Part shown: in pieces, positions 2,788 to 4,920 of the stretch
How the letters are laid out: every line of letters starts with the position of its first letter
How positions within the stretch are numbered: position 1 is the stretch's first letter
IMG/VR virus record: IMGVR_UViG_2693429582_000026
Length of the DNA: 15,498 bases
Source: a virus
Lineage: Duplodnaviria; Heunggongvirae; Uroviricota; Caudoviricetes
Strand: one strand, 5' to 3'
Position numbers and translations under genes: made by a program
The notes under the pieces: generated by a model
The model's input: the letters and a program-made list of their open reading frames with translations, nothing else
Told to the model about the DNA's origin: nothing
Database searches by the model: none

Positions 2788-3389
2788 GCGGCCTCACTTC
2801 TGCTGTTTCGCAGGTCTTTAAGTTTCTGCTGATACTTCGCCTTGATGGCCCTGCACTCTTCGACAGTCCAGCGATGGCGGTTATGGTTTGATTCGATTTC
2901 GTCTACTGCTTCCTGCCCGATGCGATTAATCAGTTCGACGCGATACGGAACGAGATTTCCGCTTTTGTGCTGGTTGCACACCACGCATTGCTTGTGAATA
3001 TTGCGTTCATCAAATCGGAGTTGAGGTGCCGCAGCAGTTGTCCGGTAATGTCCGGCATCCCACTGAGCAGACGTGAGCGTTCCGCACGAGATACATGGTA
3101 AGTCGCGGTCTCTTTCTCTGATGAAGGCGTTTACGGCTTGTTGGGCTTGTTTAATCCAGTAACTGCGGGGCTTTAAGGCGAGTTTTCGAATCTTAATTTT
3201 ATCTTTCTGTTTCTGCTCCTCTCGTCGTCGTTTCTTCTCTGCTGTTTTTTCCGCCTTTTCGCGTTCTTTATTTCGTCGTTCGAGCGCTAATTTAGTTCCG
3301 TGTTCCGGGCTGCACCACCACTGATTTGAGAATGCCGGGTGAAACCATTCCTTACAGATTTTGCATTTCCTTCGCGCTGGTTTAGCCAT
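2784..3389 (-). CDS. ninG: NinG (Rap) recombination-associated protein
   Basis: 201 aa beginning [33 protein letters not shown], with the Cys-rich and basic KREKAEK segments of lambda NinG/Rap. Start overlaps the upstream stop (TAATG). Confidence 0.9.
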
Positions 3390-4117
3390 TAAGCAGCCTC
3401 CCCTGTTACTTTAAGCATTCCGTTATCTAGCAGCTTTCTTGTCAGCCACTGTTGACCACGCCCGGTGATTTTTGTGGTGAACGATATCTGTATTCCGTGA
3501 TTTGTATTGACCGCTGTTTCTTTCACTGTGAAATAGCCGCGATCCATATATTCCTGCATTGGCACATTGCGCCGGGCACCTGAAGCAATAAGGATTTTGT
3601 GATCGCGCATCCACGCAAACAGTTTGTTTGGACCAATACCAACAACCTTTGCAAAGTTTCCAATCAAAATTCCGCTGGCCTCGCCAACTCGATCGGCAAA
3701 CTCAACTTTAGGTGCTGCGAGAGCAAGCTGTTTCTCCAGTTCAGCCTTCTGGTCTTCAAGGTCGGCCGCAAGGCGCAATGCCTCAGAAAAGGTTTGTGGT
3801 ATTTTCGCGGTTGCCCCTTCGAGTTCTCGCCAGCGGTCAACAAGGCGAGCGGTGAATTCCGGCGACAACTGAGCGACGACAATAATGCTGTCTCGCTTAC
3901 CTTGTTCGCCTTCGAATACATACACACGAAAACTTTGATTTAAGCCTAACCCATTGATTCTTCCACAATCCTCAATTTGAGGATGTCGGATAACACCATT
4001 TTTAGCCAGCATTTCGATAGTACGTTTCACATTGTCATGACGCTTACCTGTAAGCTCAGAGATTTCAATGCTGGTCATTTTGATGACGTTGCTATTTATC
4101 AGCTCGTTCATTGTCAT
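3389..4117 (-). CDS. Rha-family regulatory protein with C-terminal antirepressor (ANT/KilAC-like) domain
   Basis: N-terminal [24 protein letters not shown] matches the Rha domain signature; the C-terminal half (...[28 protein letters not shown]...) resembles antirepressor C-terminal domains. The true start may be the ATG at 4111 (better RBS spacing). Translationally coupled to ninG. Confidence 0.7.
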
Positions 4118-4144
4118 GTCCTCTCATATTGAAAATTCACCAAT

Positions 4145-4172
4145 AAAAAACCCAGCCGAAGCTGGGTTTGTT
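4145..4172. terminator. Bidirectional rho-independent terminator between the ORF6N gene and the Rha/Ant gene
   Basis: CCCAGC-CGAA-GCTGGG (4151-4166) flanked by AAAAAA (4145-4150) and TTTGTT (4167-4172). Confidence 0.65.
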
Positions 4173-4185
4173 AAGTTGTCAATTG

Positions 4186-4920
4186 TCAGTAGCGATGTAG
4201 TGAAGGAGGTAATTCTTTGTTCTTAAGCCTTACCCATGCGGAAAGATTCGTTGGTCCGTCTGGCTCATTAATATCAACATCTCGTGTGTGATTGATTAAA
4301 ACGTCTCTCGCCATTCCAATAACATACGAGAACTCATGACCGTAGTCGTAACATCTGCCGGAATAGTTCGATTGAATTTGCTTTAGCGCTGGATACAATT
4401 CGCGGAATAATGCCTGTGAGCGGTTAGCATAATCCCACAGCCATACAAGGCTGTCTGTTTCTTTTGCGGAAAGCCCGTTGAGCTTCTTCTCTTGTTTGCC
4501 AGTATTTTTCTCGCACTGGCTGAAATAGCAGTCTTCCAGTTTTTCGAACACATCCCACGCCTGATCAGTTTCGAGCATTTTGGCATGACGGGCTGCTCCG
4601 CGTTCTGTCCAGAGTATGAGGGAGCGGGCTTTCGGGGAAATTTGTAACCCTCTTAAAGATGGTTGCAAATTTTGTGAGTTACTTAAAGTAACCCGCAAAT
4701 TTTGTGAGTAGTTTAAAGCTACCCGCAATTCTTTAAGGTCATTACCAACAACTTTGAAAAAGTGTTTCCCTTCAACGAAGCGTACTTTGTTCTCATGATG
4801 ATTCTGGCGAATACGCACCGGCTCAGTGCCGTAAAGCTGCGCCAAAAGTTCGGTGGTAATAACAGGAATCTGGTTATGGGTGATCGGGGAGAGAGTTTCA
4901 ACAGAAATTTGAGTTGTCAT
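4186..4920 (-). CDS. ORF6N-domain protein (antirepressor-associated family), 244 aa, with internal 10-aa tandem repeats
   Basis: ATG at 4920 with GAGGG RBS. N-terminal [48 protein letters not shown] fits the ORF6N pattern (TxxLAxxYGT...NFxxNKxRFxEGKHYF). Confidence 0.6.
4636..4738. repeat. Tandem 30-bp repeats embedded in the ORF6N coding sequence (two well-conserved units plus degenerate flanking copies)
   Basis: Units at 4665-4694 (GCAAATTTTGTGAGTTACTTAAAGTAACCC) and 4695-4724 (GCAAATTTTGTGAGTAGTTTAAAGCTACCC) match at 25 of 30 positions. Degenerate copies at 4636-4664 and 4725-4738. They encode [20 protein letters not shown] peptide repeats. Confidence 0.7.

Follow-up and report, generated by a model that had tools for sequence, protein, structure and literature searches.

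An ant cassette with an IsrK/C4-type leader and a separable roi gene in the nin region of a Shiga-toxin-type lambdoid prophage

The 15,498-nucleotide (nt) stretch of viral DNA analysed here (IMG/VR record IMGVR_UViG_2693429582_000026, Caudoviricetes) is referred to as the window, and the subject of this study is two genes of its nin region, ant and roi, together with the leader upstream of ant. Based on open reading frames (ORFs) and Pfam matches, the whole gene group lies on the minus strand in the order NinB, NinE, ant, roi, NinG, NinH and Q. The flanks are set by ninB (5784..5374, Pfam NinB) and ninE (5377..5195, Pfam NinE) on one side, and by ninG (3389..2784, Pfam NinG), followed by NinH and Q, on the other. 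The first of the two middle genes, ant (4920..4186), encodes 244 amino acids (aa), has Pfam and PHROG matches and carries the name ‘ant’ in VT2-Sakai. The second, roi (4117..3389, 242 aa), is likewise matched by Pfam and PHROGs and combines a Rha-like N-domain with an ANT/KilAC C-domain. Both proteins are placed by PHROGs in ‘anti-repressor’ families.

A preliminary description made from the letters of the window had read this locus as an ORF6N gene between ninE and ninG, where lambda has ninF, followed by a Rha-family/ANT gene coupled to ninG. All of this is borne out. Pfam ORF6N is matched on 4920..4186 (E 7e-19), the flanking genes are confirmed by Pfam, and the position is the place of ninF in HK022 as well. 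The second gene matches ANT/KilAC (E 9e-33) and barely passes Phage_pRha (30.4 versus 29.9 bits), so that ORF6N, ANT and Phage_pRha, the domains for which searches had been proposed, were all matched; HK022 Roi itself falls below the Phage_pRha cut-off. The roi stop and the ninG start overlap as TAATG at 3389, providing the coupling. The pair itself is the long-known ant and roi of Shiga-toxin-type lambdoid prophages, annotated as such since VT2-Sakai. For a 1951-bp region, identity is 100% with a prophage of E. coli O103 ML775, 99.9% with Shiga toxin (Stx) 1a phages and about 94% with VT2-Sakai and phage 1717, in both of which the genes are named ant and roi. Stx phages in general (VT2-Sakai, 933W-like, 1717, Phi24B/Min27, 2851) have these genes, their order and the leader in common with the window, and for Stx1a and VT2-Sakai-type phages the DNA identity to the window genes is 94-100%. 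What is new here is the IsrK/C4 switch before ant, the chimeric nature of ant, and a conserved palindrome embedded in it.

The 275 nt between ninE and ant contain, on the minus strand, a promoter and c4-a1b1, IsrK and C4 elements, the RNA elements being recognized by Rfam models at their gathering thresholds. A sigma-70-like promoter (TTGACG, 18 nt, TATATT; 5194..5165) with 10 of 12 consensus matches lies directly after the ninE stop. The c4-a1b1 element (5171..5119; RF03163, 50.5 bits versus a gathering threshold of 46.7) represents decoy targets of C4 RNA. It is overlapped by an IsrK-type small RNA (sRNA) with two hairpins and its own terminator (5158..5082; RF01394, 75.5 bits versus 50), and further downstream there is a C4-type antisense RNA element (5056..4973; RF01695, 66.7 bits versus 45). 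The same models recover the annotated c4 of P1 and the isrK, C4 and isrJ of Gifsy-1, which served as positive controls. All 20 diverse viral loci examined that have an ORF6N-type ant also have isrK and C4 at this place, and both elements lie upstream of ant in Min27, VT2-Sakai, 1717 and PA28. The isrJ sRNA, which follows anrP in Gifsy-1, is absent from the window according to Rfam. No LexA box (CTGT-N8-ACAG) was seen by eye near the promoter.

The ORF6N gene had initially been described as flanked by terminators and inserted with them into the nin region. Both hairpins are present, but the upstream one is the terminator of the IsrK sRNA within a larger leader, and the statement about terminators turns out to be an understatement, because ant also has a promoter and an IsrK/C4 riboregulatory leader. 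The IsrK terminator (stem 5103..5087, followed by a U-run) is weak (-8.1 kcal/mol, z -1.1), which fits partial read-through. In a simple terminator scan the number of sites was not above chance overall (5 found, 4.9 expected), but each of the two sites has independent support, the upstream one from the isrK model match and the downstream one from its folding energy and its P22 counterpart (see below).

The closest parallel to this leader is the isrK-orf45-anrP region of Gifsy-1 (Hershko-Shalev et al. 2016, PMC4825925), which has the promoter, IsrK with its terminator, an AUG at +107 and a C4-like element (STnc1160 region) in common with the window. The two leaders align across the -35, the -10, IsrK, the terminator, AUG +107 and the C4 stem; both promoter hexamers are also conserved in an alignment that includes the PA28 leader, and the changes in the C4 stem relative to Gifsy-1 are compensatory. 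In the minimum-energy fold predicted for the window leader, IsrK nt 22-38 are paired with nt ~150-168, a helix that is predicted to correspond to ‘helix b-I’ of the inactive structure A of Gifsy-1. The same inactive fold is predicted for both, and the ORF6N N-domains encoded downstream are 63% identical over 117 aa. In Gifsy-1, PisrK drives anrP transcription, and the read-through transcript is translationally silent since the central segment of IsrK is base-paired to the 3' portion of orf45 (PMC4825925). Short IsrK supplied in trans opens the orf45 ribosome-binding site; orf45 and anrP translation are coupled, and AnrP induces the prophage (PMC4825925). The increase in anrP translation caused by IsrK in trans exceeds 100-fold and needs orf45 translation, and according to the authors the nucleotides of orf45 are conserved but the peptide is not (PMC4825925).

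The window differs from Gifsy-1 in several respects: its leader ORF is in a shifted frame that ends 31 nt short of ant, its Ant has a P22-type C-domain, no isrJ follows, and three palindromic units (see below) are present in ant, whereas AnrP is without them. The cassette also lies at a different place, in the nin region upstream of Q in the window and downstream of antQ in Gifsy-1. The leader ORF from AUG +107 (5052..4951, 33 codons) is homologous to the start of Gifsy-1 orf45, from which a 2-nt difference shifts its frame; it has no Pfam match, and no similarity to Icd was seen. An annotated 57-aa ORF (5090..4917, GTG start, phrog_20442) has only its C-terminal frame in common with orf45 and overlaps ant as ATGA. 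The relation between the frames of leader ORF and ant varies among relatives, from an ATGA overlap in Gifsy-1 through the 31-nt gap in the window to a fusion in P0029 and P0031.

A direct repeat of GAUUGGCGUC occurs at 5135..5126 and 4971..4962, and its complement ACGCCAACCC lies inside C4 at 5001..4992. The second copy is contained in a stable hairpin (4985..4940, minus strand; -22.2 kcal/mol, z -5.5), where it sits in the loop, is complementary to ACGCCAA in C4 and is located about 20 nt upstream of the ant Shine-Dalgarno sequence, not on it. It is a candidate b2-type target. No clear a2 target was found at the ribosome-binding site of the first ORF in the window leader.

The immunity region immI of P1 and P7 (c4-icd-ant1/ant2, then kilA) resembles the window in having a1/b1 and C4 RNA upstream of an antirepressor operon. 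The next gene in P1, kilA, ends in an ANT/KilAC domain, as does roi, so that the window order of IsrK/C4, small ORF, ant and roi parallels P1 immI plus kilA. A further resemblance is the 4-nt overlap of icd with ant1 in P1. The window, however, has no icd homologue and no C1 operator. P1 also has no terminator after a1/b1, and thus no separate IsrK, whereas the window has the IsrK terminator. The domains are distributed differently as well: P1 Ant1 is without ORF6N or P22_AR_C, the P1 ANT domain being found in Ant1 and KilA, whereas the window Ant is without an ANT domain, which is in roi.

In addition to ORF6N, Ant matches Pfam P22_AR_C (E 2e-27). The N-terminal 117 aa are those that are 63% identical to Gifsy-1 AnrP, to which the C-terminus is unrelated; identity to P22 Ant is 89% over the final 104 aa. 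The cassette ends in a strong intrinsic terminator (4169..4142, minus strand; stem 4169..4148, -15.6 kcal/mol, z -5.3) that is identical in sequence to the one annotated after P22 ant and is retained in PA28 although the downstream genes differ. Judged by sequence, ant is therefore a chimera, with leader and N-domain of the AnrP type and C-domain and terminator of the P22 ant type. P22 Ant has P22_AR_N in place of ORF6N and is controlled by Arc, Mnt and the sar antisense RNA; arc, mnt and sar are not present upstream of the window ant, where the IsrK/C4 leader is found instead. With promoter, leader, ant and P22-type terminator together, the cassette (5194..4142) is self-contained. Its left end adjoins GTGATTGAC, which is the start of ninF in HK022.

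The Ant of Min27, reported to be 97% identical to that of Phi24B (PMC3430580), has the same two domains as the window Ant and is 72% identical to it. In a Phi24B ant knockout, activity of the late promoter pR' after norfloxacin was 27-56% of wild type and could be complemented, while superinfection was unchanged (PMC3064807). ant was weakly expressed in uninduced lysogens (PMC3064807), which fits a CI-independent promoter. A Protein Data Bank sequence search with Ant and Roi gave no meaningful matches, and an AlphaFold2 model of Ant from an alignment of 14 sequences, more than 90% identical, had a mean predicted local distance difference test score (pLDDT) of 37. On the opposite (plus) strand, inside the part of ant that encodes P22_AR_C, there is a promoter-like sequence (TTGAAT, 16 nt, TACAAT; 4372-4399) and a terminator-like hairpin (4437-4454). 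This pair (4372-4454) could specify an antisense RNA some 55 nt long, although both parts are no more than consensus matches from a scan at chance level.

Translation of roi likely starts at the second ATG (4111), the start also used in HK022 and by the NCBI Prokaryotic Genome Annotation Pipeline (PGAP). Roi is 82% identical to HK022 Roi over its full length, and the window gene is by homology the orthologue of HK022 roi. It occupies the same place in the nin region, before a gene starting at a TAATG overlap; the N-terminal residues ~20-65 have diverged, and HK022 has ninF upstream of roi, without the ant cassette found in the window. Inside roi there is a perfect palindrome, ATCCTCAAaTTGAGGAT (3984..3968, minus strand, 8-bp arms), 8 nt upstream of an IHF core, AATCAATGGGTTA (3959..3947, minus strand), which is the only perfect match to the consensus WATCAANNNNTTR in the window. 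The HK022 right arm also has a single such core, and in both phages it lies 152 nt from the MNELIN ATG; the adjacent palindrome in HK022 has arms of only 5 bp. HK022 Roi is reported to bind within roi itself, adjacent to a site for IHF, and to inhibit lytic growth in IHF mutants. Most likely, Roi modulates lytic growth with IHF rather than acting as an antirepressor. The antirepressor label given earlier to both genes is thus plausible for ant, where it is suggested by homology to AnrP and P22 Ant, but unsupported for roi, whose only link to antirepressors is the ANT/KilAC domain that it shares with P1 Ant1.

At least 80% of the 1951-bp region is present in 487 of 5426 complete E. coli genomes and parts of it in 2091, at up to 10 places per genome. 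Amongst 80 viral loci that encode the Ant N-domain, about 40 lie downstream of ninE. In these, a gene with the P22-type C-domain almost always has roi as its next neighbour; 38 of the 80 have the same N-domain with another C-terminus and context. HK022 has roi without the ant cassette (order ninE-ninF-roi), Gifsy-1 has an ant-type cassette downstream of Q without roi, and in PA28-like phages two other genes, ninF among them, lie between ant and roi. Because of these three cases, ant and roi are to be regarded as frequent neighbours but separable modules, not an obligate pair. In phage 2851, a second ORF6N/P22_AR_C gene, antB, follows IS629 and is preceded by an sRNA-Xcc1 match (79.3 bits; L005, 2370-2453), with neither isrK nor C4 upstream, while the first gene, antA, keeps the C4 leader.

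We consider it probable that the region consists of two separable units: a riboregulated antirepressor cassette (5194..4142) and an HK022-type roi that modulates lytic growth. For the regulatory and protein-level activities of both units we infer the following scheme. The cassette would be a moron-like, self-contained element, ordered as a constitutive-looking promoter, IsrK with its a1/b1 decoys and a leaky terminator, C4, leader ORF, ant and strong terminator. If Gifsy-1 and P1 are a guide, the middle of IsrK would, on transcripts that read through the IsrK terminator, pair with C4 on its 3' side, and this pairing would keep the leader ORF, and hence ant, untranslated. Free short IsrK, or a condition that shifts the fold, would open the leader, ribosomes would proceed toward ant, and Ant would be made. 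In Salmonella, IsrK rises in stationary phase, in low Mg2+ and with peroxide. Ant would then speed or trigger derepression; its most probable partner is the resident lambda-type CI, and the interaction domain is probably the one in common with P22 Ant. Transcription from pR under N antitermination would cover roi along with the nin genes, and roi would be translationally coupled to ninG.

The putative target lies within the window. The resident repressor (9504..10217) we take to be lambda CI with a few residues different, and the immunity region (9430-10217) is presumably of lambda type, with OR3-OR2-OR1 read as in lambda. With a lambda-type CI resident, and given that P22 Ant has been reported to inactivate lambda CI (PMC3064807), a direct Ant-CI interaction appears plausible. 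Gifsy-type antirepressors are likewise described, in earlier work as cited in PMC4825925, as binding and inactivating the lysogenic repressor. The suggestion that the module might govern cross-induction in polylysogens also appears plausible. Lemire et al. 2011 are said to have found that Gifsy-type antirepressors act in trans between co-resident prophages, and a trans-acting Ant could similarly reach co-resident lambdoid prophages. Ant-type proteins affect the speed of the lytic switch of Shiga-toxin prophages and therefore the amount of toxin. A CI-independent ant promoter gated by an IsrK/C4 switch would represent a testable route by which non-SOS signals trigger induction.

Several observations weigh against this scheme. 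The leader ORF from AUG +107 stops 31 nt before ant and does not overlap it, so that the coupling between them may be weaker or work differently than in Gifsy-1; in some E. coli relatives (P0029, P0031) the leader ORF is even fused in frame to ant, giving 274-278 aa. Paired by hand, the loops of a1 and C4 match poorly, only the b-type 7-nt match UUGGCGU/ACGCCAA being clear. AnrP is without the P22 C-domain yet induces its prophage. According to Fogg et al., CI is ‘not necessarily’ what Phi24B Ant acts on (PMC3064807). Finally, the cassette may not matter for induction of its own element, the replication gene being frameshifted in a 100%-identical genome. Taken further, the last point would make the cassette a moron that is selfish or neutral and sits in a decaying prophage, without a role in induction of its own element. 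In line with such a status are that same frameshift, the IS629 insertions within ant or roi, which are common and tolerated among relatives, and the broken frame of the leader ORF relative to Gifsy-1. Nevertheless, compensatory changes have preserved the structure of the RNA elements, hundreds of genomes have an intact cassette, and Ant, if it works in trans, could still affect other prophages of the same cell. We therefore regard a neutral cassette as improbable, and prefer the two-unit reading with a riboregulated antirepressor.

The ant gene contains three in-frame units of 30 nt (4728..4702, 4698..4672 and 4668..4642, minus strand), each a 27-nt palindrome and each encoding 10 aa. The number of units is 1-4 in relatives, including near-identical prophages; among Stx phage alleles it is 0 in Min27 and 1-4 elsewhere, some alleles also carrying IS629, and neither Gifsy-1 AnrP nor Min27 has any. 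When 17 distinct units were compared, 84.5% of cells paired, against 23-43% when the partners were slid; 7 of 11 pairs had changes on both sides, and none of 500 shuffles reached the observed values. The amino acids vary so that the symmetry stays (e.g., VTLSN, LTLSK, VSLRH, PSLRG).

The comparison was extended to 80 diverse ORF6N genes from other genera, with 58 unique segments used for statistics. In the 80 genes the strongest perfect palindrome clusters 38-104 nt before a conserved LWTERG motif, with arms of up to 16 nt and sequences that are mutually unrelated. The carriers (loci L097-L176, L092, L094 and L096) include Enterobacterales, Acinetobacter, Chromatiales, Rhodospirillales and a Paenibacillus phage. 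The best arm in this target interval averages 6.74 nt over the 58 segments, with arms of at least 7 nt in 22 and at least 10 nt in 10, compared with 4.4-4.9 nt in three control intervals (at least 7 nt in 3-5, at least 10 nt in 0-1) and 4.54 +/- 0.13 nt in synonymous-codon shuffles (7 nt or longer in no more than 7 cases). The symmetry centre occurs in all three codon phases, which argues for a feature at the nucleotide level that is not a consequence of the peptide. No description of such a palindrome was found in Rfam 15 or in the searchable literature, including papers that mention ORF6N. A search with Rfam at E <= 1 over 3300-5300 returned nothing credible for the units, only weak plus-strand noise (rivX, CbSR14).

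Tentatively, the palindrome might be a selected cis-acting element general to ORF6N-type genes, either an operator or hairpin in the gene's own DNA-binding-domain coding sequence (i.e. autogenous) or an mRNA hairpin that gates ant. Counts of mismatches, which could separate a DNA dyad from an RNA hairpin, were too few (G.T 3 versus A.C 0). An autogenous parallel is the binding of Roi inside roi that is reportedly known for HK022. Alternatively, the palindromes might be a non-functional by-product of hairpin-templated mutation and replication slippage. If they are functional, they would constitute a compact regulatory site written in coding sequence and varied by repeat number, and the 1-4 in-frame copies of 30 nt would tune antirepressor output between near-identical Stx-type prophages. 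Two more specific roles were considered and rejected. The window has no further match to the outer-arm pattern TTGCR-N17-YRCAA, which speaks against an operator repeated across its 15 kb; complementarity to the upstream leaders is at most 5-6 nt, so the units are not obvious targets of C4 or IsrK. Palindromes are also seen in the coding regions of N-terminal domains in P1 kilA (nt 223-254; L088, 5119-5150), with 14-nt arms and one mismatch, and in P22 ant (nt 180-205; L089, 1092-1117), with 13-nt arms and one mismatch. The palindrome in the window roi (3968-3984, 8-nt perfect arms) joins these two cases in an Ant/KilA/Roi group.

Strong palindromes inside ant and roi, as possible operators, also bear on a different view of both proteins. 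Ant and Roi could be sequence-specific DNA-binding regulators of the KilA-N/Bro-N/ORF6N/Rha superfamily that act on promoters (phage or host) or on replication and not on a repressor, in which case the ‘antirepressor’ names would be annotation inherited via shared C-terminal modules. HK022 Roi is described as a DNA-binding protein, and ORF6N and pRha are predicted DNA-binding modules that have been shuffled among C-domains, as in the 38 of 80 loci with another C-terminus. Moreover, Fogg et al. could not show that Ant acts on CI (PMC3064807). However, the C-terminal half of Roi is 53% identical to P1 Ant1, which according to the P1 record antagonises C1 by complex formation. The Ant C-domain is 89% identical to that of P22 Ant, a classical repressor-binding protein (PMC3064807), and both AnrP and Phi24B Ant promote induction (PMC4825925, PMC3064807). 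On this balance, purely DNA-directed roles for Ant and Roi seem unlikely, though less so than a neutral cassette, and the antirepressor cassette with a separate roi is preferred.

Elsewhere in the window, the replication O-type gene (7864-8735, minus strand) is split into two ORFs of 185 and 124 aa, and in the identical genome PGAP annotates it with a frameshift; the prophage may thus be replication-defective. Near the end of the window on which the late region lies, two further sRNAs are matched at the Rfam gathering level: the anti-GcvB sRNA AgvB (448-509, plus strand, 96.5 bits) and STnc100 (510-703, minus strand, 142.7 bits). On the minus strand, a TerB-family gene (872-1375) comes after a group of three tRNA genes (1476-1724). 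The region after Q and the tRNAs is where VT2-Sakai carries stx2A; according to the annotation of the identical ML775 locus, the window prophage is an stx-negative close relative of Stx1a phages.

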